Source of the DNA: a virus
Taxonomy: Duplodnaviria > Heunggongvirae > Uroviricota > Caudoviricetes
IMG/VR virus record: IMGVR_UViG_2585427783_000004
Strand: one strand, 5' to 3'
Length of the DNA: 13,994 nt
In this document: piece after piece, positions 2,418 through 13,994 of the stretch
Layout of the letters: each line of letters begins with the position of its first letter
How positions within the stretch are numbered: the first letter of the stretch is position 1
Notes under the pieces: model-generated
Database searches by the model: none
Told to the model about the DNA's origin: nothing
Seen by the model: the letters and a program-made list of their open reading frames with translations, nothing else
Position numbers and translations under genes: made by a program

Positions 2418-2502
2418 ACTTAGATGTCCGTCTATATCAGATGGGCGTCTAAGTTACCAATTCTCGTCTGATGGCTACATACGGCGGTCAGTTTACGCTT
2501 AC

Positions 2503-3348
2503 GACAGAGTTATAATTTTTGCCAAAATTGGTAATGTCAGAATTTAATCCCTTAATTAAGTCTGCTGACGGCTTACCTTTTTGCCCCAGCTCCATTAGCT
2601 TCAATCCCATCTCATCTGAGTGAATTTGTGCTCGCTGAGCCCTGTCTAGTTGAGCGTTCTGGATATTTGCCCATCCTCTCGCGTTCTCCATGTCAGCCTG
2701 ACGCATACTTTCATCCAGTCGCCCTTGCTCAAGTCGACGACCTTCCATTTGATCTTTGATATCGAAATACTTCTCATGACCGAGAGAAAACAGCGCCAGA
2801 TTACCTGCGAAATGCTGGAAGCCCTGCGGGTCATTAACCTGCATTTCAGCAATAGTTTCTGGAGGGATACCTAAACGACGCATCTCCTGCTCATTATCCA
2901 TCATGAACCTGCCAAATGCGCCCTGACCAAGCGATGAGGCTACCTGTGCTTTGAGCGCCAGATTGCCATAATCATCCCTTTGAGCATCATCGACATAACT
3001 CATCCCTTTACGGACTTCCTCAAACTCTTCTGGGAATGCTGTAATAAGATTACGCATCTGCTCCCTGTCACCGGACGCATAAGCATCTGCATAACCTTTC
3101 TGGAATGCCGCTTTACGTTCCTGCTGTTGCTGCTGCTTATAAATGTCAGCAACTCCAGCCAGACCACGAAGACCTGTCAGAGCAACGTTATTTGCACCTG
3201 AGCGAGCCAGTTCATTGTTTTCGCGGATCAGACCAAGCGTTGCGTTAATGTCGCTTGCCTTTGGCGCATTCTCATTTTGCGCACCGATGCCAGCCAGAAA
3301 ACCACCAGAATTAATACCCTGTTGCCACGTAGCCATAAATTTACCCAC
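2503..3348 (-). pseudogene. Q/E/R-rich, predicted alpha-helical protein of unknown function; 3' end interrupted by the IS66 insertion
   Basis: Open frame from 3348 (alternative ATG at 3334, MATWQQ...) runs without a stop into the IS. The last codons and stop (V-S-V-N-TGA, 2502->2488) are encoded by the IS terminal repeat itself, so the native C-terminus is missing from the window. Poly-Q tract (QQQQQ) and coiled-coil-like composition. Confidence 0.55.
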
Positions 3349-3548: not shown

Positions 3549-3577
3549 ATTATAGTTTCATAAAACGCAACATTCAT
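3549..3577 (-). promoter_or_regulatory. Candidate sigma70-type promoter for the 57-aa/286-aa operon
   Basis: Perfect TATAAT on the minus strand (plus coordinates 3554->3549) about 35 nt upstream of the ATG at 3514; the -35 is weak (ATGAAT at 17-bp spacing), so it may be activator-dependent. Confidence 0.3.
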
Positions 3578-3610
3578 CATTGTGATTGCAAAATATGAAA
3601 CAAATAGCAC

Positions 3611-3642
3611 AAAAAAATGCCACCGTTCAGTAGCTGGTGGCA
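3611..3642 (-). terminator. Rho-independent terminator for minus-strand transcription
   Basis: On the minus strand: stem UGCCACC / GGUGGCA (7 bp, 3642-3636 and 3624-3618) with an 11-nt loop, immediately followed by a run of 7 U (3617->3611). Confidence 0.5.
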
Positions 3643-4008
3643 TCGTTCTGTATGTCAGGTTTTGACAGTTTTTTTATGGACTCTAAAAACTATATTTATG
3701 GAGTCGCATTACTCTTCACGGCAGGCGCTTTCCAGTTCTGCCCTTGCTTCTGGCTCCATTGGTAATTTGATTCGCGATCAGCTATGCGGATGGTTTGCTG
3801 AACAGGCATAACAACATCTCAGAGGCTATTTTTTGAACTACGAAAATTTCGTAGTGCTCACCTTCAAAAACGTCACGCCCTTGTACACTGGATTTTACAA
3901 AAGTCTCGTAAAACTCTTTGCTGTTCTGGGCTATGTGCCAAACCGCAGCGAATACCTCCGTCTGCCAGATGAGCAAAACATACCTTATAAAGAAAATCGC
4001 TGTTTTTG

Positions 4009-4112
4009 CTGTACCACCTGTACCACCATGTCACAAACCCTTGTGTGGCGCGGCCTGCAGGTGGTACAGGTGGGTAAAAATGACCTCTCCCCACCTGTAC
4101 AGACCTGTACCA
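4009..4112. repeat. Iteron array B: direct and inverted copies of GGTGGTACAGGT / tandem 9-mers TGTACCACC; candidate crr/ori-like site
   Basis: Tandem CTGTACCACC-TGTACCACC at 4009-4027, GGTGGTACAGGTGGGTAAAAATGACC at 4060-4085, ACCTGTACAGACCTGTACC at 4094-4112. Same core motif as array A, 1.1 kb away. Confidence 0.5.
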
Positions 4113-4117
4113 TTTAT

Positions 4118-5118: not shown

Positions 5119-5222
5119 TGGTATAGGTGGTACAGGTCTGGTATAGGTAAGATATTGACCTGTACCACTATAACGCATTGTTTTTAATGCTGAATTAGCA
5201 AAGTGGTATAGGTGGTACAGGT
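5119..5222. repeat. Iteron array A immediately downstream of the primase gene: two direct 18-bp copies GGTATAGGTGGTACAGGT plus an inverted partial copy; candidate origin of replication
   Basis: GGTATAGGTGGTACAGGT at 5120-5137 and 5205-5222; GGTATAGGT again at 5140-5148; inverted ACCTGTACCACTATA at 5158-5172. The array begins 30 bp after the primase stop. Confidence 0.5.
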
Positions 5223-5251
5223 AAAAACGATCTTCTTGTAAAAAGACTATA

Positions 5252-7603
5252 TTAAAAAACATCATAACCCCCCATACCGATCAGACGGGCAAACGCAGCC
5301 TGTAGAACTCCGACCTCTGGTAGTTCGTAGAACACGCCATTCCCTCGGTCTGGTCTTCCATGCTTCACCAGCCCCATTTGTGCAAGTGATTTACCCAGTA
5401 GTGATCTGGCAGCTGGTTCTTTAAGCTTTTCCCCACGCTCAAGCGACCACGCTACAAATCGACTAACCATATCCTTTGCAAACAAACGGACTTCGCCATT
5501 AAACGGAGGTTCATTGATTAGCTCGCCATAAAGAAACAATTCAACGCCAGACAGCCCCAGCAAGATTTCTTCACGTAAGGCATCGGTCTGTGGCGCTCGT
5601 TGAGGGTCAAAACCTGAGAGATCCACCCCTTTAAGATGCCAAAGCAACTTTGCGGCACCGCCATCATTAAGCCAACTGTACAGCCGATCAAAATACTCCC
5701 GGCTCTGTGCTTTTTCAGGAGATGGCTCAAGCACGAGATAGCGGCGCTCTCTTATCCCTGCCTGTAATACCTGTGTGCTGTTACTGGCAAATATCAACCG
5801 GGCAAAATTCGGCATTGGTTCAGCATCAATTCCCTTGCGCTCAAGGTTAAACGTCGGTTCGCTAATAATCGCTTTAAGTCTGTCAGCTTCAGACGGCTTG
5901 TGGATCGTCACTTCGTCAGCAAATACCAGTAGCTTGTTAGCAAGTATTGAATTGAAGCGCCCTGAAATATGTCCCGCCCCGTTAATGTGGGCGGCGTACT
6001 GCCCCAGTATTTGCAGCAGCGGTTTAACCGTTGTGCCTTTCCCTGTGCCCGGGACAGATTTCATCACGATTGCCACGGACGGTTTTTCATCAGGCTTTTG
6101 GATAATGTGCGCCATCCACTGGATAAGATATTGGTATGCCTCTTCATTACCGGCACAGACAACCTGCAACAGGTGATTAAGGTATACCGTGCAATCTCCT
6201 TCAATTGGTTCCAGTGCCAGCCCCTCATACAGATTAAAAACATCGTCAGGGCATTTGTCTGGTACTGGATAAAATCCTACGCCTCCTGGCTTGTAGTTCT
6301 TCCCACTCCATGACAGCCACGCCGATCCCGCCAGCTTTCTGGCGACTCTCGGTTTATGATGAAAATAATGCTGAAATTGTGATAAATCCTCGAAAACGTG
6401 CGATACACCGCCGGTTTGAGAAGGCTTTAGCGACACCCCCTTGTGTTTCCCGCCGATGGTGACATGCGTAAACGTCCGGTTGATTTCTTCGAGGACAGCA
6501 ATTTCATCATCGCTTAACACCTCGCCAGAACTGATCTCATTCAGCGCCCCGACTGACTGTTTGTGATTTTTCACCTGCGCCCCTTTCCCCCGTGGCTGGT
6601 ACATCGAATCTTTAAATGCTGCTGTGGCTGCCGCCAGCCCGTGTTGTTGGTGATAGTCGTTCCAGTCGGCTTTATAGTCAGTCGGTGGCAGAGACACCCA
6701 GCCAGCTACGGAAATAGCGGCCCTCTCTGCGGCATCTTTCCCCGTGTTGATCCCTCCACTTTCGGAGTTTCCTTGCTGGTGATCGTTATCTGCGGCAATG
6801 ATGATTTGTGCCTGTGGATATGTTCTGCGCATGACTTCCGCTACTGGCAACAGGTTGCCAGCGTCGATTGCTGCCACTGTCATTGCGTCAGGGCGAATTA
6901 AATGGCACGACAGGGCGGTAGCCACCCCCTCAGCAATTATGATGCTGTGAGGTCGTTTCTGTGCGTTTATGGCGTGATATGCCCCTCGCTTTGCTGAACC
7001 TGTCAGGAGTCTTTTTTCACCATGTGAGGTAATAGTCTGTGCTGCTGTGACTGCGCCGGATTTATCCACCAGCGCCAGCAACAGAGATCCATCGGGCAAC
7101 ACAGGGAATGTAAAATCACCTACCCCTTTCGCAACCAGATAATCAGATTTGCCGTTTACAGCCTTTCTGCGCATGTCATCAAACTGACGGGAAAACGTAT
7201 CCCGTCTTTGTTGTTCGTCCTTCTCTGCCCTTTTCAGGCGCTCCTGTTCGCGTCGCTGGCGCTCGGTTTCCAGTTGTTCCCGTTTCTGGCTGGTGGCTTC
7301 TGGTGTTTCCGTTGTCCGGTAATCAATACCCAGAACATCAGCGGCAAGAAGCGCCGCCTCTGTTGTGTCGCAGTTATTTACGCGTTTAATTAAATCCAGC
7401 CCATCACCAGCGCCGCACTGATTACAGATGAAGCTACCGCGCCCGTTGTCATCGAACCGGAATCGATCTTTGCCCCCACATGCAGGGCAGGGAGCATGAC
7501 GGCGCGGAGAGTCAGGGACATTTATGTTCAGGCAGTCCAGCACATGAGGCCAGTTGTTTTCAGACGCACTGATAACCTGACGGATAAGATCAATGTTTCG
7601 CAT
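5252..7603 (-). CDS. P4 alpha-like bifunctional primase/helicase (zinc-binding primase N-terminus, TOPRIM-like middle, P-loop NTPase C-terminus), 783 aa
   Basis: ATG at 7603. Zinc-ribbon motif CPACGGKDRFRFDD...CNQCG near the N-terminus, Walker A-like VPGTGKGTT, overall size close to P4 alpha (about 777 aa). Recognised from family signatures. Confidence 0.9.
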   Translation of the reverse strand: MRNIDLIRQVISASENNWPHVLDCLNINVPDSPRRHAPCPACGGKDRFRFDDNGRGSFICNQCGAGDGLDLIKRVNNCDTTEAALLAADVLGIDYRTTETPEATSQKREQLETERQRREQERLKRAEKDEQQRRDTFSRQFDDMRRKAVNGKSDYLVAKGVGDFTFPVLPDGSLLLALVDKSGAVTAAQTITSHGEKRLLTGSAKRGAYHAINAQKRPHSIIIAEGVATALSCHLIRPDAMTVAAIDAGNLLPVAEVMRRTYPQAQIIIAADNDHQQGNSESGGINTGKDAAERAAISVAGWVSLPPTDYKADWNDYHQQHGLAAATAAFKDSMYQPRGKGAQVKNHKQSVGALNEISSGEVLSDDEIAVLEEINRTFTHVTIGGKHKGVSLKPSQTGGVSHVFEDLSQFQHYFHHKPRVARKLAGSAWLSWSGKNYKPGGVGFYPVPDKCPDDVFNLYEGLALEPIEGDCTVYLNHLLQVVCAGNEEAYQYLIQWMAHIIQKPDEKPSVAIVMKSVPGTGKGTTVKPLLQILGQYAAHINGAGHISGRFNSILANKLLVFADEVTIHKPSEADRLKAIISEPTFNLERKGIDAEPMPNFARLIFASNSTQVLQAGIRERRYLVLEPSPEKAQSREYFDRLYSWLNDGGAAKLLWHLKGVDLSGFDPQRAPQTDALREEILLGLSGVELFLYGELINEPPFNGEVRLFAKDMVSRFVAWSLERGEKLKEPAARSLLGKSLAQMGLVKHGRPDRGNGVFYELPEVGVLQAAFARLIGMGGYDVF

Positions 7604-8692: not shown

Positions 8693-8883
8693 TTTTCACC
8701 ACCAAGAATTACCAGCTCTGCACGGGCATCGTTAACCAAAGATGAGCACGCTTTAATCGCATCCACGACATCAGCAGCGTCCATTTCTTCAGCCGAAAGA
8801 CTGACAGCAACCAGGACAGCCGCTGCTTGCTCGATTAATTGAAGTGCGGACGTAAGGCGAGGGGTATTAATTGAGTTATTCAT
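8689..8883 (-). CDS. Hypothetical small protein, 64 aa
   Basis: ATG at 8883 preceded by GGGGG about 6 nt upstream; 8-bp overlap with the upstream gene. Confidence 0.5.
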   Translation of the reverse strand: MNNSINTPRLTSALQLIEQAAAVLVAVSLSAEEMDAADVVDAIKACSSLVNDARAELVILGGEK

Positions 8884-9094
8884 TGGTTGCCCCCGTTTTT
8901 ACTGGCATTTCGCCACCTTCCAGCAGGAAATGAACGTCACGAACGGCGAGATCCAATATCGCGAGTAACGCCTTCAGTCTTTCGTCTCGTGAGGGAGAGT
9001 TGCTCACCAGAATGTCGTTAATCACTTCTGTCAGTGTGATGATCTGGCTTGTGCGTTCGAGGGGATCCATATGCACATCGTAGGTTTTAATCAT
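8876..9094 (-). CDS. Hypothetical small protein, 72 aa
   Basis: ATG at 9094 preceded by GGAGGTG at ideal spacing; the start overlaps the stop of the upstream 64-aa gene (CATGATTAA). Confidence 0.55.
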   Translation of the reverse strand: MIKTYDVHMDPLERTSQIITLTEVINDILVSNSPSRDERLKALLAILDLAVRDVHFLLEGGEMPVKTGATNE

Positions 9095-9281
9095 GTGCCA
9101 CCTCCATGCGGATACGACCAGCAAAAAAGCAGACGTGATCGCGCACCAGAGAACGGCGAGCATCGCGTTCAGACTCGGCAGCAATATGATGAATTTTGGC
9201 GGTAATTGTCGGGCAATCGCGGCGAACTGCGGCGATAATCCAGATAAATTGCGTTTTTTGGGTAGGGGTAGTAGCCAGCAT
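9087..9281 (-). CDS. Hypothetical small protein, 64 aa; first gene of the early operon that ends with the primase
   Basis: ATG at 9281 preceded by a perfect AAGGAGG 7 nt upstream. All seven Arg codons are CGC/CGT and Leu is CTG, whereas the overlapping frame of the 355-aa ORF is full of CTA/TTA/ATA/AGG/CGA here. Confidence 0.55.
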   Translation of the reverse strand: MLATTPTQKTQFIWIIAAVRRDCPTITAKIHHIAAESERDARRSLVRDHVCFFAGRIRMEVAHD

Positions 9282-9477
9282 GTGGCAGCCTCCTTCAGAT
9301 AGCAGGTTACGCTACCACCGGAAACGCCAATTTCGCTGGTGGTAGCCCAGACAGGGTTGGCGTAACCGGCTCTGAAGGATACCGGCGCTTCCGAAGAAGC
9401 CCCCGCCTGAGCCACCATTGATTGACAAAGGCGCTGGATTATACACCAACGCCCAAAAAATGGGTGAGTCAGACCTA
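9282..9477 (-). promoter_or_regulatory. Promoter plus structured 5' leader of the early operon
   Basis: Minus-strand TATAAT at 9443->9438 (no good -35). Downstream leader has a UUCG-tetraloop hairpin (GCUUC-UUCG-GAAGC, 9400->9387) and a 9-bp stem hairpin (GCUACCACC ... GGUGGUAGC, 9346->9311) before the SD at about 9290. Confidence 0.35.
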
Positions 9478-9513
9478 CGACATAAAAAAAGACGCTTGGC
9501 GCGTCATATGTCG
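9478..9513 (-). terminator. Candidate rho-independent terminator at the end of the alpA-side transcription unit
   Basis: Minus strand: stem GACGC / GCGUC (5 bp, 5-nt loop) followed by U7 (9490->9484), nested inside a larger inverted repeat CGACAT ... ATGTCG (9478-9483 / 9508-9513). Confidence 0.4.
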
Positions 9514-9943
9514 CCTTCAGAATTTTTAGGACGCCAATCCCGGCACCCGTTTTATGAGGTGCCTTATAACCATAAACCGTGTTGCCGCATAACGGCAAGC
9601 TCTTTTTTATGGACTCCGAAAACTCACTATTGGAAGAACCAGAAGCACAGTACATCGCGCTCATTTCGTTAACGTCACGCGCGTGGACGAAGGTTTTTGT
9701 GGAGTCACTACACGAGCAGAGAAAGCCATCTACGACCAGAAATTCTCTGGCATAGCCGCTGACCTTCTCAACGCTAACACCATCGACCGTAATTTCTGAC
9801 ATAGTTAAGGCATCCGCTCCTACCACCAGCAAATGATAAACTTTGCTTGTATCTGCTGTATTAATGTCTGACTTTGCTGTCATATTGCTGGATTTTGGCG
9901 ACATACCAGCCAGTGAAAATATCTTCTTCTGGGCGGTTAGCAT
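9514..9943 (-). other. Open frame with a plausible start (GGAGG + ATG at 9943) but no in-frame stop before the terminator and promoter; possible decayed gene or chance open frame
   Basis: SD GGAGG 7 nt upstream of the ATG at 9943 and protein-like composition for about 120 codons, but the frame runs through a terminator, a promoter, leader hairpins and a better-supported gene in another frame without any stop. Confidence 0.25.
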
Positions 9944-10119: not shown

Positions 10120-10945
10120 GGACCGCCTCCAGACGCTTGGCGAGCCAGCGTTGCGACAGGCGGGGGAGTTCTCCTTTGCGCTGCTCATATTCCATGCCCA
10201 TATCAATTAACGTGATATTGGTGCTTTCGAGATATGAGAGGTGCTCAAGCTGTTCTGCGTTCATATGGTCGCGAGGTTCGCCAGAATAGCCATTTATCCG
10301 CGCCCACTGCTTAGCAGTTAGCCCACCAAGAACGATACGAGAAATCATATTGCTCTCGTTTGTGTAGTGGTGTTGCTGCGTCGTTTTCCCCATCTCGGCA
10401 CGGGCCATATTCAGCGCATCGCACATTGGCTTGAAGTTGTTTGCGGCACTGATACGGGCTTTTAGCTGGCGACGATAGCGGGCGGCGATTTCAGGCACGC
10501 TACGCTGTAATTCTTTCTCGCACTGGATGAAATAACGGCGGATAGCGCGACCCTGATCATTGCGTTCGATCATTGCCAGTTCTTTCGCCATTCCGACACT
10601 TAACAGATAGTCTTTGCCGGGTCTGCCAGACTGCTTAATCTTGCTGTAAGCCGCGTCATTCGGGCTTTTCCCCAAATTTGGGGAAATTGTTTTATGGACT
10701 GAGTAATCGTGCCCAATGGTGAAGTCATATTCAGAGATGCGATCAGTGATCCATGTAGAGAAGTCTTTTCCCACGCCCAACGCTTTGTGTAACGCTTTTG
10801 CGCTAACAATATTGGTTTCACGCCCGCCTATATGACCAGAAATAACCGGGACAATTGCGGCAAATTCATTACCGTTAATTGTGCCCAGAGAGGCGTTCAG
10901 ATGAGGGGCGGCCTCAGAAATTAATCTGCTTTTTTCGATGTTCAT
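10112..10945 (-). CDS. Phage antirepressor-like protein with N-terminal AntA/AntB-type domain, 277 aa
   Basis: ATG at 10945 with GGAGA 6 nt upstream. The N-terminal region (SAKALHKALGVGKDFSTWI...GRPGKDYLLSVGMAKELAMIE...GRAIRRYFIQCE) matches the conserved AntA-domain pattern as I recall it. Confidence 0.65.
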   Translation of the reverse strand: MNIEKSRLISEAAPHLNASLGTINGNEFAAIVPVISGHIGGRETNIVSAKALHKALGVGKDFSTWITDRISEYDFTIGHDYSVHKTISPNLGKSPNDAAYSKIKQSGRPGKDYLLSVGMAKELAMIERNDQGRAIRRYFIQCEKELQRSVPEIAARYRRQLKARISAANNFKPMCDALNMARAEMGKTTQQHHYTNESNMISRIVLGGLTAKQWARINGYSGEPRDHMNAEQLEHLSYLESTNITLIDMGMEYEQRKGELPRLSQRWLAKRLEAVHV

Positions 10946-10957
10946 TTTTAGTCTCCG

Positions 10958-11389
10958 TTAGGCGGCGTTAAACGCGTCCGGGTAGAGTTTCAGAATGTCG
11001 GCAATTTCCTGCTGAGAAAGTCCGTTGTGATCATTTATGTTCGCAAGATGGTTAACATGAGTGATCACTTTCAGAACATCACCACGGCAGGAGAAACGGT
11101 AGCGAAGGTGTGTTCCGATACCATCAGGATTCTTTTCGTCGATACGCTCCAGAGTGATTCCAAGCTGGCGTTCTAACTCTGTTGCATAGTTACGACCAGA
11201 AGACAGACGGCAGTAGCGAAGAATGTCATTTTCTGTCCATCCCTCTATACCAGTACGCAGCATATAGACTCGGGCACGATGCTTTTTCGGTGTGCGCTTT
11301 GGTGCTTGAAGGGATTTTGTAAGGGGCGTAATATCAGATACGCGAATATCTGAATTAGCCGCCTGTAATGGGCGGTTTTTCTTTTCCAT
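10958..11389 (-). CDS. Hypothetical protein, 143 aa, basic N-terminus; function unknown
   Basis: ATG at 11389 overlaps the alpA stop (ATGA); no stop for 143 codons; conventional codon usage. Confidence 0.6.
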   Translation of the reverse strand: MEKKNRPLQAANSDIRVSDITPLTKSLQAPKRTPKKHRARVYMLRTGIEGWTENDILRYCRLSSGRNYATELERQLGITLERIDEKNPDGIGTHLRYRFSCRGDVLKVITHVNHLANINDHNGLSQQEIADILKLYPDAFNAA

Positions 11390-11607
11390 CAGGCCACCTT
11401 CCCGCGGCGTTCTGCCAGCCAGTTATTAATTTCCACCGCATCAAACGCAGTCACGTTATCTGTTAGCTTCACTGGGCGTGGAAGAGTGCCATTTTTAACC
11501 CATCTATCAATAGTAGGCAGTGAAACACCTAGCAATTCCGGCATGCGAAAGCGACGGATGTATCCAGTTGTTGGGATAGCTGATGATGCTGGCTTGTGTA
11601 CTGTCAT
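11389..11607 (-). CDS. alpA: AlpA-family (excisionase-like, MerR-type HTH) transcriptional regulator, 72 aa
   Basis: ATG at 11607. Small protein with the motif MPELLGVSLPTIDRWVKNGTLPRPVKL...AFDAVEINNWL typical of AlpA/Xis-type regulators found next to P4-type integrases. Confidence 0.75.
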   Translation of the reverse strand: MTVHKPASSAIPTTGYIRRFRMPELLGVSLPTIDRWVKNGTLPRPVKLTDNVTAFDAVEINNWLAERRGKVA

Positions 11608-12078: not shown

Positions 12079-12729
12079 TTAGTCGAGATCGTGGACAGCT
12101 AATAAAGCCCGTGAGATTTTTTCTAGGAATGTGGCTTTTGCTATTCCTTTATGGGATATCCCTTCATCCTTGATTAAGGTTTCTATGTCACGGTATATAG
12201 CTGTGCGATTAGGTTTCCCATTTTGGATGTAGGAAGATGAGCCTGATTTTTTTATCAGCAGATGTACTATCAACCCCATCATTTTCATTGTCCCGTTTTC
12301 CTCATCCTGCTTTCTATGCTGCCCACGTCCGCTGCGGTTGGTTTCTTTGATGTAGTTTACTAACTGGAGTCCTCCAAGGTTTCGGGCTTTTTCTTCCCAG
12401 CCCTTGGTGCCACGCAAATCATCAATCGCTTCTGATATTTTCTGAACAATTATTTCTGGTGTATTTGTGTCAATAAATGGGTAAGAAGCTAAGAAAATAT
12501 CAAGGGCATGGCAAGGCTCATCTTTACTAGTTTTTTCACCTCTGTACACCTTGATAGCTCTGGCAAGATGAGTTCTGACAAAATCGACATATTCGAAATT
12601 TTCCTCAGGCACATCGCTAATGCGCATAGATGGGTTTAGGCCAGCCAAGGCCACAGCCATTTCATGAGGGGTAATCGATACAGATGAACAAAGCCGTTCG
12701 ATTGGCGATTTTCTCAAGATGTTGTTCAC
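12079..12729 (-). CDS. Hypothetical protein, 216 aa, translationally coupled to the integrase; AT-rich cargo gene of unknown function
   Basis: GTG start at 12729 overlapping the integrase stop (GTGA) with a strong GGAGG 5 nt upstream; TAA at 12079-12081. Visibly lower GC than neighbouring genes. No family recognised. Confidence 0.6.
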   Translation of the reverse strand: MNNILRKSPIERLCSSVSITPHEMAVALAGLNPSMRISDVPEENFEYVDFVRTHLARAIKVYRGEKTSKDEPCHALDIFLASYPFIDTNTPEIIVQKISEAIDDLRGTKGWEEKARNLGGLQLVNYIKETNRSGRGQHRKQDEENGTMKMMGLIVHLLIKKSGSSSYIQNGKPNRTAIYRDIETLIKDEGISHKGIAKATFLEKISRALLAVHDLD

Positions 12730-13994
12730 ATTTGCCTCCGGGCTTTATCGAATGGCGTTACGTTGTAGTCTTTCCCGCTTTCCAGTGCCACCAGCAGATC
12801 TGCCCACTGTGCCAGTGCTGCTTTACGCTCATCAAAATACTGATGACGGTTATAAATCCCCTCTACGCCCTTAATGCGATGATTGAGGCATCGTTCCGCC
12901 ACGACAGGATCAACACCCAATGCTGCTAAATGAGTACGTGCGGTGCGTCGGAAGTCGTGAATCGTGAAATTAGGCACATCCGGCATTTCGGCGCGAACCT
13001 TAGCCAGTGCTACGGGTAAAGTGCTTTCCTGAATATGTGGGATCATTCTGTTTTGCATCTTCCTGGCCGGAAGCACCCATGCGCTATTACATGAAAAGGT
13101 GTGTAGCTCTCTCAACCATTCAACGGCTGGGGAAGGTAGAGGTATATCAATAGGGTCTCCGTTTTTGCTGCGTTCTTCCGGCAAATGCCATACCGCACCA
13201 TCTAAATCAAACTCTTCCCATCGTGCGGCGCATAACTCCATCTTACGAACGCATAGTGCCAGCAATAGCTTAAATGTCAGTTCGTTCTGGCGGCTGAATC
13301 CTTTTGCGGTGCGCATAGCCTCGAATAGCCTGATAAGCTCATCGCGAGTTAGCCAACGGTCGCGGGAAACCTCTTTACCACCAGCATCAGATACTTCAAA
13401 CGCTGAACAAGGGTTTATCTCCAGAGCGTGGCGTTTTATCCCATAGTCAAAGATACGGCGTGTCCAGCGTAATACATCTGTTGCTATCGTTGGTGCTCCT
13501 CGGTCAACGATACCTTTTAACATGTCGTCAATGTGACGTGGCTTAACGTCCTCTACCTTCATATGCCCAATGCAGGGGTTAATATCCTTATCAATTCTCC
13601 GGCGAAGGATATCGGGATGTTTCCATCTCGGAAGTATCTGTCGCTCGAAGTATTCGGCGGCCAGATCTGAAACGCGCATGGCGTTTTTCTCAGCCTCCAT
13701 TTTTGCCAGTGCTTCAGCTTTTCGTTCCTGTTTTTCTGCTGCTACGTCATAGCCAAGAGCAACTCTGGCTGACAGCTCTTTTGCTGTTTCTCTGGCTTTT
13801 GATAGTGACAGTTCGGAGTAAGAGCCGATAACCATAGCCCGCTGTTTTCCTGCGAGCTTATATCGGAATCGCCAGAACGGGACTGTGTAGTTTTTGGGGT
13901 AGCAAATATAAAGGCCGTTGCCGTCTGCCTTGCCATCAAATCTGTCTCCCGCCTTTATCCATGCGCGGATCTGCATATCTGTGAGTTTTGGCAT
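12726..13994 (-). CDS. int: Tyrosine recombinase, P4-type phage integrase, 422 aa
   Basis: ATG at 13994 (window edge). N-terminal arm-binding region with RFRYKLAGKQRAMVIGSY...LSKARETAKEL, and C-terminal catalytic region with HDFRRTARTHLAALGV and a conserved Tyr (YNRHQY). Confidence 0.9.
   Translation of the reverse strand: MPKLTDMQIRAWIKAGDRFDGKADGNGLYICYPKNYTVPFWRFRYKLAGKQRAMVIGSYSELSLSKARETAKELSARVALGYDVAAEKQERKAEALAKMEAEKNAMRVSDLAAEYFERQILPRWKHPDILRRRIDKDINPCIGHMKVEDVKPRHIDDMLKGIVDRGAPTIATDVLRWTRRIFDYGIKRHALEINPCSAFEVSDAGGKEVSRDRWLTRDELIRLFEAMRTAKGFSRQNELTFKLLLALCVRKMELCAARWEEFDLDGAVWHLPEERSKNGDPIDIPLPSPAVEWLRELHTFSCNSAWVLPARKMQNRMIPHIQESTLPVALAKVRAEMPDVPNFTIHDFRRTARTHLAALGVDPVVAERCLNHRIKGVEGIYNRHQYFDERKAALAQWADLLVALESGKDYNVTPFDKARRQM

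Follow-up and report, generated by a model that had tools for sequence, protein, structure and literature searches.

Why would a phage satellite that encodes no terminase carry, at two distant sites and in one orientation, a short sequence that also lies inside the small-terminase gene of P22-like phages? The question is raised by IMG/VR record IMGVR_UViG_2585427783_000004, a stretch of 13,994 nt (hereafter the window, meaning the whole stretch), which is an Escherichia coli phage satellite of the EcCIMP1 kind. EcCIMP1 (record OR778291) is an E. coli phage-inducible chromosomal island (PICI) that is mobilised (transduced) by the P22-like phage Kapi1; it has neither terminase nor capsid genes, and its packaging mechanism is unknown according to its authors (PMC11773190). 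From sequence identities, nucleotide-level constraint within the small-terminase gene (terS) and the distribution and orientation of the motif, we arrive at the view that both copies are probably, though by no means certainly, mimics of the packaging (pac) site of a P22-like helper phage with a small terminase (TerS) of the CUS-3 type, and not elements of promoter control.

Two copies of a short directly repeated sequence

The first-pass annotation had described a repeat of roughly 30 bp with about 80% identity. The same-orientation repeat is there, yet it is shorter and its identity over that length is lower than supposed. The core is 22 nt long, with 20 of 22 positions identical between 3670-3691 (TTTTTTATGGACTCTAAAAACT) and 9603-9624 (TTTTTTATGGACTCCGAAAACT), and only these 22 nt are well matched. 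Over the full span first proposed (3667-3704 against 9600-9637), 25 of 38 positions agree (66%), and about 21 of 30 agree over 30 bp by hand count. No collinear similarity between the two copy regions extends beyond the 22-mer. The two copies, and the promoter relative to which copy 2 is numbered, are as follows; promoter positions were deduced with the 5' end of the Rfam isrK match (9562) as +1.

3670-3691, minus strand: copy 1 of the terS-derived motif; the gene strand reads AGTTTTTAGAGTCCATAAAAAA, 20 of 22 nt identical to copy 2.
9602-9624, minus strand: copy 2 of the terS-derived motif; the gene strand reads AGTTTTCGGAGTCCATAAAAAAG, at -62 to -40 of the isrK promoter (9603-9624 corresponds to -62 to -41).
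9569-9598, minus strand: core promoter of isrK and the early operon, equivalent to P_LE of phage P4; -35 TTGCCG (9598-9593), 18-nt spacer, -10 TATGGT (9574-9569).

Of 60 dinucleotide-shuffled versions of the window, one contained a direct repeat as good as 20/22 (p ~0.02). The window by itself thus offers only modest evidence for a repeat, and the case rests on comparative data.

Smaller features noted around the copies were also inspected. The direct repeat TTTATGGA(C/G)TC inside copy 1 is present, with a start-to-start distance of 22 nt, not 21, and most relatives have TTTATGGTGTC or TTTATGGTATC as the second unit. The TGTCA...TGACA inverted repeat next to copy 1 can be seen directly in the sequence.

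3654-3668, no strand assigned: small inverted repeat TGTCA-N5-TGACA beside copy 1.
10689-10701, minus strand: partial third copy, CAGTCCATAAAAC, inside antA and in the same orientation (repeat family D5).

The inverted repeat is kept in close relatives and in L007 and is absent in L142 and L144 (L numbers denote loci of the comparative set); it is probably not part of the element. The partial third copy matches over only 11-12 nt, lies within conserved coding sequence and is followed by the palindrome TTTCCCCAAATTTGGGGAAA; it may be due to chance.

Each copy is identical to an allele of CUS-3-type terS

An exact-pattern scan of IMG/VR with TTTTATGGACTCNNAAAACT returned at least 120 loci. Among the 120 listed, 95 fall in one gene family, 16 are copy-2-type sites, two are copy-1-type sites and seven have other contexts. 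The reverse strand of the 95 loci encodes ..W K L D Y P K F S E S I K K G K.., and the family is TerS of CUS-3-type P22-like E. coli phages, the protein being 100% identical to that of vB_EcoP-720R6 and 99% identical to that of CUS-3. The gene is located directly upstream of terL and the portal gene, and the C-terminus of its product is identical to that of Sf6 TerS. The gene strand of copy 2 matches the commonest CUS-3-type terS allele at 23 of 23 nt and vB_EcoP-720R6 at 22 of 23, and the gene strand of copy 1 matches the 'FLESIKK' allele of the same gene at 22 of 22. The two bases that distinguish the copies fall in the Ser/Leu codon, the one unconstrained codon, which varies among terS genes. 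By our own estimate, chance would give a 23-nt match of the 14-kb window to a 440-nt gene about 2e-7 times.

The similarity is at the DNA level rather than the protein level, since stop codons precede copy 1 directly upstream in the terS frame. No terS-like flanks were found around the satellite copies, where nothing is left of terS but the 22-26 nt under constraint. In vB_EcoP-720R6, the motif occurs once, inside terS, and it is not palindromic. No terminase was detected among the window ORFs (open reading frames) using Pfam, PHROGs and tblastn, there is no TerS-like protein in the window, and no Rpp-like or TerS-like satellite protein was found.

The matching part of terS is an island of invariant codons

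Homologues of TerS were gathered by protein similarity, which introduces no nucleotide bias, with one genome per species. The resulting 16 sequences range from Enterobacterales to Bacteroidota and Planctomycetota. Across them the codons TTT nnn GAG TCC ATA AAA are nearly invariant at synonymous sites and the flanking codons vary, with the following counts:

Phe, TTT: 15 of 16 homologues.
Glu, GAG: 13 of 14 homologues.
Ser, TCC: 13 of 13 homologues.
Ile, ATA: 10 of 10 homologues.
Lys, AAA: 15 of 16 homologues.

At other conserved residues of the same genes, all synonymous codons are in use. Judged from these codon counts, the motif in terS is an island of nucleotide-level selection, situated in the part of the gene that encodes the DNA-binding domain of TerS.

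Leavitt et al. 2013 reportedly placed the pac site of Sf6 within the terS DNA encoding the DNA-binding domain, and the domain and its site are said to move together. In P22, the pac site is a 22-bp asymmetric sequence inside gene 3, the terS gene (PMC9611059, PMC8022706), and it is annotated in AF527608 as 'pac site; packaging recognition by terminase'. The CUS-3-type motif resembles it in its small size (~22-26 bp), its asymmetry and its place within terS of a P22-like phage; unlike it, the motif belongs to a CUS-3-like TerS type and has no sequence in common with P22 pac. We infer that the constrained island would be the pac site of the CUS-3-type TerS family, and that TerS would bind and package from the satellite copies.

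A parallel exists in a second family. In an unbiased sample of 19 Sf6-type TerS sequences with <85% identity, a weaker codon island is found at the same place (TAC 19/19, GCG 15/16, GAC 10/11, GAG 9/9), the codons at the position equivalent to the CUS-3 motif being TTT CGC GAC AAG TAC GCG. The Phe that opens the motif stands seven residues after a conserved Trp (W+7 = F) in both CUS-3-type and Sf6-type TerS. Near-invariant codon islands occupy the same structural position in two large TerS families (terS in L153-L170 and L549-L628) across bacterial phyla, and both are candidates for a self-recognition (pac) site.

The motif follows one group of satellites and its orientation is fixed

We examined the distribution of the motif in complete genomes. 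In a set of 5,426 E. coli genomes, a 34-nt query around copy 2 matched at 984 places in 883 records. Among the matches listed (60 of the 883 records), all are either the satellite 'ash/Icd-like' site or a gene beside the large terminase, and the two 'hypothetical protein' matches that were opened proved to be terS of P22-like prophages. The motif is thus not scattered in the genome, since every listed match belongs to one of these two contexts.

To this we added a set of 66 loci anchored on isrK and hence independent of the motif. The promoter block A5-6 GGGCTTGC ... TATGGTTATAG is universal in it. The GAGTTTYNNGAGTCCAT part occurs only in the loci named group A, and every group A satellite has copy 2; the isrK-type promoter is shared by groups B, C and D, which lack the motif with its GAGTCCAT part. 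The motif always has the orientation of the genes, and loci with the orf57/ejection module also have copy 1. Copy 1 is kept where its upstream flank (L137), its downstream hairpins (L144/L128) or both (L142) have been replaced; it is absent in L007 and more distant relatives. Persistence with flanks replaced on either side (L137, L142, L144), always in gene orientation, suggests that the satellite copies are under selection.

Sequences of two further TerS types lie at the same locus

Beside copy 2, the window holds a remnant of another small-terminase gene.

9651-9795, plus strand, against the direction of the satellite genes: what is left of a P22-type gene 3, coding for the small terminase (~nt 243-374); blastn 91/107, E 1e-30; tblastn E 6e-12.
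9689-9710, plus strand: counterpart of the 22-bp P22 pac site, GAAGGTTTTTGTGGAGTCACTA; 16 of 22 nt identical to P22 (hand count), aligned to AF527608 positions 4-25.

The remnant is matched by 115 phage records under 'terminase small subunit' and is present in all window-type satellites. It spans the P22 pac counterpart, lies 65 nt from copy 2, and its variant of the pac counterpart is itself conserved among window-type satellites. The long 'ash family protein' ORF assigned here by PGAP (Prokaryotic Genome Annotation Pipeline; 8876-9943) runs over this region: its N-terminal third is probably not a real gene because it is antisense to the P22-type remnant, and the rest overlaps two RNA genes. 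A second P22-terS remnant near copy 1, suggested by repeat D7, was not significant (p = 0.05) and was rejected.

Sf6-type sequence occupies the corresponding place in other satellites. The TerS of Kapi1 is of the Sf6 type, and its terS holds TTTCGNGACMAGTACGCG exactly. Many satellites have this sequence, in one or two occurrences with 0-4 mismatches, at a distance of 94-181 nt upstream of the isrK region. Its orientation is always that of the genes, and its frames are broken by stop codons.

L006, ~7155: Sf6-type TTTCGNGACMAGTACGCG site.
L007, ~11417 and 11513: Sf6-type TTTCGNGACMAGTACGCG sites.
L182-L204, at -94 to -181 from the isrK region: Sf6-type TTTCGNGACMAGTACGCG sites.

The EcCIMP1-like satellites L006 and L007 thus carry sequence of the same TerS type as Kapi1, the helper of EcCIMP1. 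Taken together, three TerS types have left terS-internal sequence in one satellite region.

A packaging model and its relation to known satellites

In the model that we favour, the satellite itself supplies no terminase. After its excision and replication, the DNA-binding domain of the helper TerS would recognise GAGTTTYNNGAGTCCATAAAAAAG on satellite DNA and recruit the large terminase, which would cut nearby and begin to fill helper capsids by the headful mechanism. Upstream of the isrK promoter there would be an exchangeable cassette of packaging signals, made up in the window of the CUS-3-type motif and the P22-type terS remnant spanning P22 pac, and in EcCIMP1-like relatives of Sf6-type terS sequence. 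Such a cassette would widen the range of usable helpers among the mosaic P22-like phages.

Satellites that carry a packaging signal of their helper are known, namely P4 with the P2 cos site, cos-type Staphylococcus aureus pathogenicity islands (SaPIs), EcCICFT073, and PLE (PICI-like element), which has its own pac and TerS. The window element would be like these in being helper-dependent, without a terminase (or with a modified one), and packaged through a site that a terminase recognises. It would differ from them in using a headful pac signal copied from within the helper terS, present twice and joined with pac-like sequences of other TerS types. A headful pac mimic from inside helper terS, its two copies per element and its combination with other TerS types at one locus appear to be new.

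A broader proposition, which we put forward only tentatively, is that EcCIMP1-type satellites carry an exchangeable pac-mimic cassette of several specificities (CUS-3-type twice, P22-type, Sf6-type) taken from helper terS genes. Comparison of satellite and phage would then reveal which sequence is pac in a very large TerS family, in the form of an island of invariant codons across phyla; the TerS DNA-binding domain and its site would travel as one module, and the satellites would read out the pairing of site and TerS. How terminase-less EcCIMP1-type PICIs are packaged is an open question (PMC11773190), and a 22-26-bp pac mimic, if true, would explain their mobilisation. The TerS type would then predict which P22-like phages can be helpers, and candidate pac sites would be pinpointed for two widespread TerS families, in which specific recognition of DNA has proved hard to show in vitro (PMC9611059).

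Several observations weigh against this model. The pac role of the CUS-3-type motif is deduced from codon invariance. The island in CUS-3-type terS contains an in-frame A_AAA_AAG heptamer, and ribosomal frameshifting could explain part of the conservation in terS; it cannot account for the satellite copies, which are non-coding. Among the genomes listed, none combines the satellite with a CUS-3-type terS, and the single overlap is one IMG (Integrated Microbial Genomes) genome with a window-type satellite and an Sf6-type terS prophage. The ejection proteins of window-type satellites are closer to those of Kapi1, whose TerS is of the Sf6 type, than to those of the CUS-3-like phage. The match itself is not uniform: in vB_EcoP-720R6 the motif is a variant with TCT, copy 1 of L003 is altered by a single substitution, and decayed versions are present in L143 and L145. 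The CUS-3-type motif runs in the direction opposite to that of the P22-type remnant. Lastly, copy 2 overlaps the place of an upstream promoter (UP) element, an A/T-rich block at -38 to -59; its A-run third fits the proximal consensus, and a possible contribution to the promoter would give copy 2 a second or different role.

Possible relics of recombination

The copies might be non-functional relics of terS fragments, left by recombination with helper phages at mosaic junctions, which we regard as unlikely. A clear terS relic, the P22-type remnant, does lie beside copy 2, and both copies sit at homology breakpoints (the match to L007 stops at the T-run beside copy 1, those to L006 and L007 at ~9627); the decay in L143 and L145 would also be expected of relics. 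Recombination debris, however, does not readily explain why just the 22-26 nt constrained in terS remain without terS-like flanks, why there are two copies per element that differ only at the unconstrained codon, or why the motif survives in four or more flank contexts without ever changing its orientation.

A possible activator or antiterminator site, and the promoters around the copies

The first-pass annotation had proposed a shared cis-regulatory site, possibly for an activator encoded by the satellite or its helper. What holds of this is a shared cis-acting DNA site in one orientation, very probably read by a helper protein; the activator role does not. In its fullest form the proposal makes the motif an activator or antiterminator site for AlpA or a helper late protein, serving the early and the orf57/ejection operons. 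AlpA is the master regulator in PICIs (PMC11773190), both copies have the same direction relative to transcription, and copy 2 takes up a typical activator position upstream of the isrK promoter. Each copy had been placed just before a hairpin and a promoter, and for copy 2 this is correct, as it lies directly upstream of the promoter. Its hairpin is the -35/-10 spacer and is not conserved in relatives; in more than 50 of them CTTGC and TATGGTTATA are conserved and the spacer is fully variable. Copy 1 is separated from the next promoter by ~115 nt and a terminator. In the order of transcription it is followed by the inverted repeat, the terminator and the orf57 promoter (-10 at 3554-3549).

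3611-3642, minus strand: intrinsic terminator at the end of the primase operon, with copy 1 on one side and the orf57 promoter on the other; hairpin 3618-3642 plus T7, from a terminator scan.

In relatives this terminator is conserved or another terminator takes its place, and the distance from copy 1 to the orf57 promoter varies. No -35/-10 in register was found at copy 1, no Rfam family around it and no phage similarity in its region. The groups with the same isrK-type promoter and no motif tell against the activator as well, and so does the lack of covariation between the motif and alpA or antA alleles: L196, L198 and L200 have alpA 85-87% identical to that of the window and lack the motif, and L201-L203 have alpA only 55-56% identical and carry it. 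An AlpA/Vis-type operator is discounted by this and by a position relative to the promoters that is not fixed; a literature search for P4 Vis sites gave nothing relevant. An activator would also leave the identity to terS unexplained. We consider this explanation improbable.

The RNA genes downstream of the isrK promoter were assigned by Rfam.

9485-9562, minus strand: isrK-like leader RNA with its own terminator (9505-9491); RF01394, 60.5 bits, E 3.8e-11.
9335-9422, minus strand: C4/CI-type antisense immunity RNA; RF01695, 79.9 bits, E 1e-14.

Both RNAs lie inside the 'ash' ORF, whose Pfam Phage_ASH domain coincides with them, and together they make up an RNA immunity module in the style of P4 and P1. 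The arrangement is like that of the P4 P_LE leader and CI RNA and of the Gifsy-1 isrK-orf45 (STnc1160) region, with both RNAs detected and copy 2 directly upstream of the module promoter. Unlike in P4 and Gifsy-1, the motif accompanies the module here; similarity to SfV, Shiga toxin (Stx) phages, P1-like phages and P4 begins at +1 of the isrK promoter, so that the motif is not part of the module in phages. Two RNA-based candidates were rejected. Pairing of motif RNA with isrK or C4 gave duplex energies within the shuffle range in three of four cases, with a nominal value for isrK and copy 1 (2.3% of shuffles as low) and no signal for isrK and copy 2. A nut-like site (boxA plus boxB hairpin) was discarded because the two copies have different hairpins, which relatives do not conserve.

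In the orf57 promoter region (3549-3591, minus strand), a perfect TATAAT is preceded by a conserved inverted repeat, TTGCAAT..ATTGCG, and there is no -35. The promoter is retained even where relatives share as little as 64% protein identity, and it has the look of one that depends on an activator.

Remaining alternatives

The same sequence evidence would suit a decoy, in which the sites bind helper TerS and divert or block helper packaging, instead of or besides serving satellite packaging. Many satellites interfere with helper packaging, and nothing in the present data separates a decoy from genuine pac use; EcCIMP1 is described as benefiting its helper, not harming it (PMC11773190), and we think a decoy doubtful.

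Promoter architecture plus chance has only a slim prospect. Here the A-run would be a UP element and the remaining similarity a coincidence. The proximal UP consensus of Estrem et al. is reportedly AAAAAARNR; this proximal subsite is matched by AAAAAAGAG, the A-run that copy 2 has at -46 to -38, and the distal subsite does not fit. The presence of the A5-6 GGGCTTGC block in all promoter variants, and a within-window p of only ~0.02, would be in keeping with such an origin. It is at odds with copy 1, which does not lie at a promoter, and with the non-A part, GAGTCCAT + TTTT, which is common to both copies and terS.

That the copies start short plus-strand genes (MDSKN.., MDSEN..), such as a small hydrophobic toxin at 3676-3765, is very improbable: both ATGs exist, 3676-3765 encodes a hydrophobic 29-mer and two substitutions in close relatives are synonymous, but the ORFs are not conserved as proteins, no Shine-Dalgarno sequence precedes them, the ATG is TTG in L003, the copy 1 peptide has three unrelated C-termini in relatives (the C-terminal halves in L128/L144 and in L137 being wholly different), and the copy 2 ORF is down to 10 codons in relatives. 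A minus-strand ORF at 3696-3809, ending in copy 1, was also rejected, its Trp codon being a stop in L003 and most relatives by a hand reading of the alignment.

Gene content and other features of the satellite

All genes of the element are on the minus strand. Their order starts with the integrase (12726-13994) and the AlpA-family regulator (11389-11607), followed by antA, a DUF4222 protein, the long 'ash family' ORF, an icd-like gene and a P4-type primase (5252-7603), and ends with orf245, an unannotated 475-bp gap, orf57 and a P22-type DNA-ejection protein gene cut by IS66. Identical or near-identical elements are inserted between yicC and dinD in many E. coli genomes, and the element is matched in ~870-1,130 of the 5,426 complete genomes. 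Relatives exchange the primase type and the downstream module, which consists of gp7/gp20/gp16-like ejection genes or of SSB plus PerC.

The window is like EcCIMP1 in having int, alpA, primase and homologues of DUF2824 and the DNA-transfer protein, and in having no terminase or capsid genes. A P22-like helper, proven to be Kapi1 for EcCIMP1 and presumed for the window element, is a further resemblance; helper dependence has been shown for EcCIMP1 only (PMC11773190). PerC is common to EcCIMP1 and the relatives L006 and L007. The window element represents a mosaic variant other than EcCIMP1 and contains an inserted IS66. The ejection-protein genes lie at the following positions:

Window, 2488-3348: ejection-protein gene, interrupted by IS66.
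L003, 63-1195: ejection-protein genes.
L009, 418-2971: ejection-protein genes.

IS66 (three ORFs at 1-2417; region 1-2487) splits the gene for the gp16-like ejection protein, leaving 286 aa here compared with 447 aa in intact relatives. The homologues of P22 ejection proteins (DUF2824/gp7-like, gp20-like and gp16-like) are 58-86% identical to those of the P22-like phage Kapi1, and it is unusual for a satellite to supply ejection proteins of its own.

Beside copy 1, ~225 bp of the unannotated gap (3692-3917) are better conserved than their flanks; this stretch is found with differing primase and iteron types, and neither a conserved ORF nor an Rfam match lies in it. The orf58-orf245 genes are flanked by iterons (GGTGGTACAGGT), both direct and inverted, at 4003-4117 and 5119-5226. 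Their sequence differs with primase type in relatives, suggesting an ori/crr-like pair.

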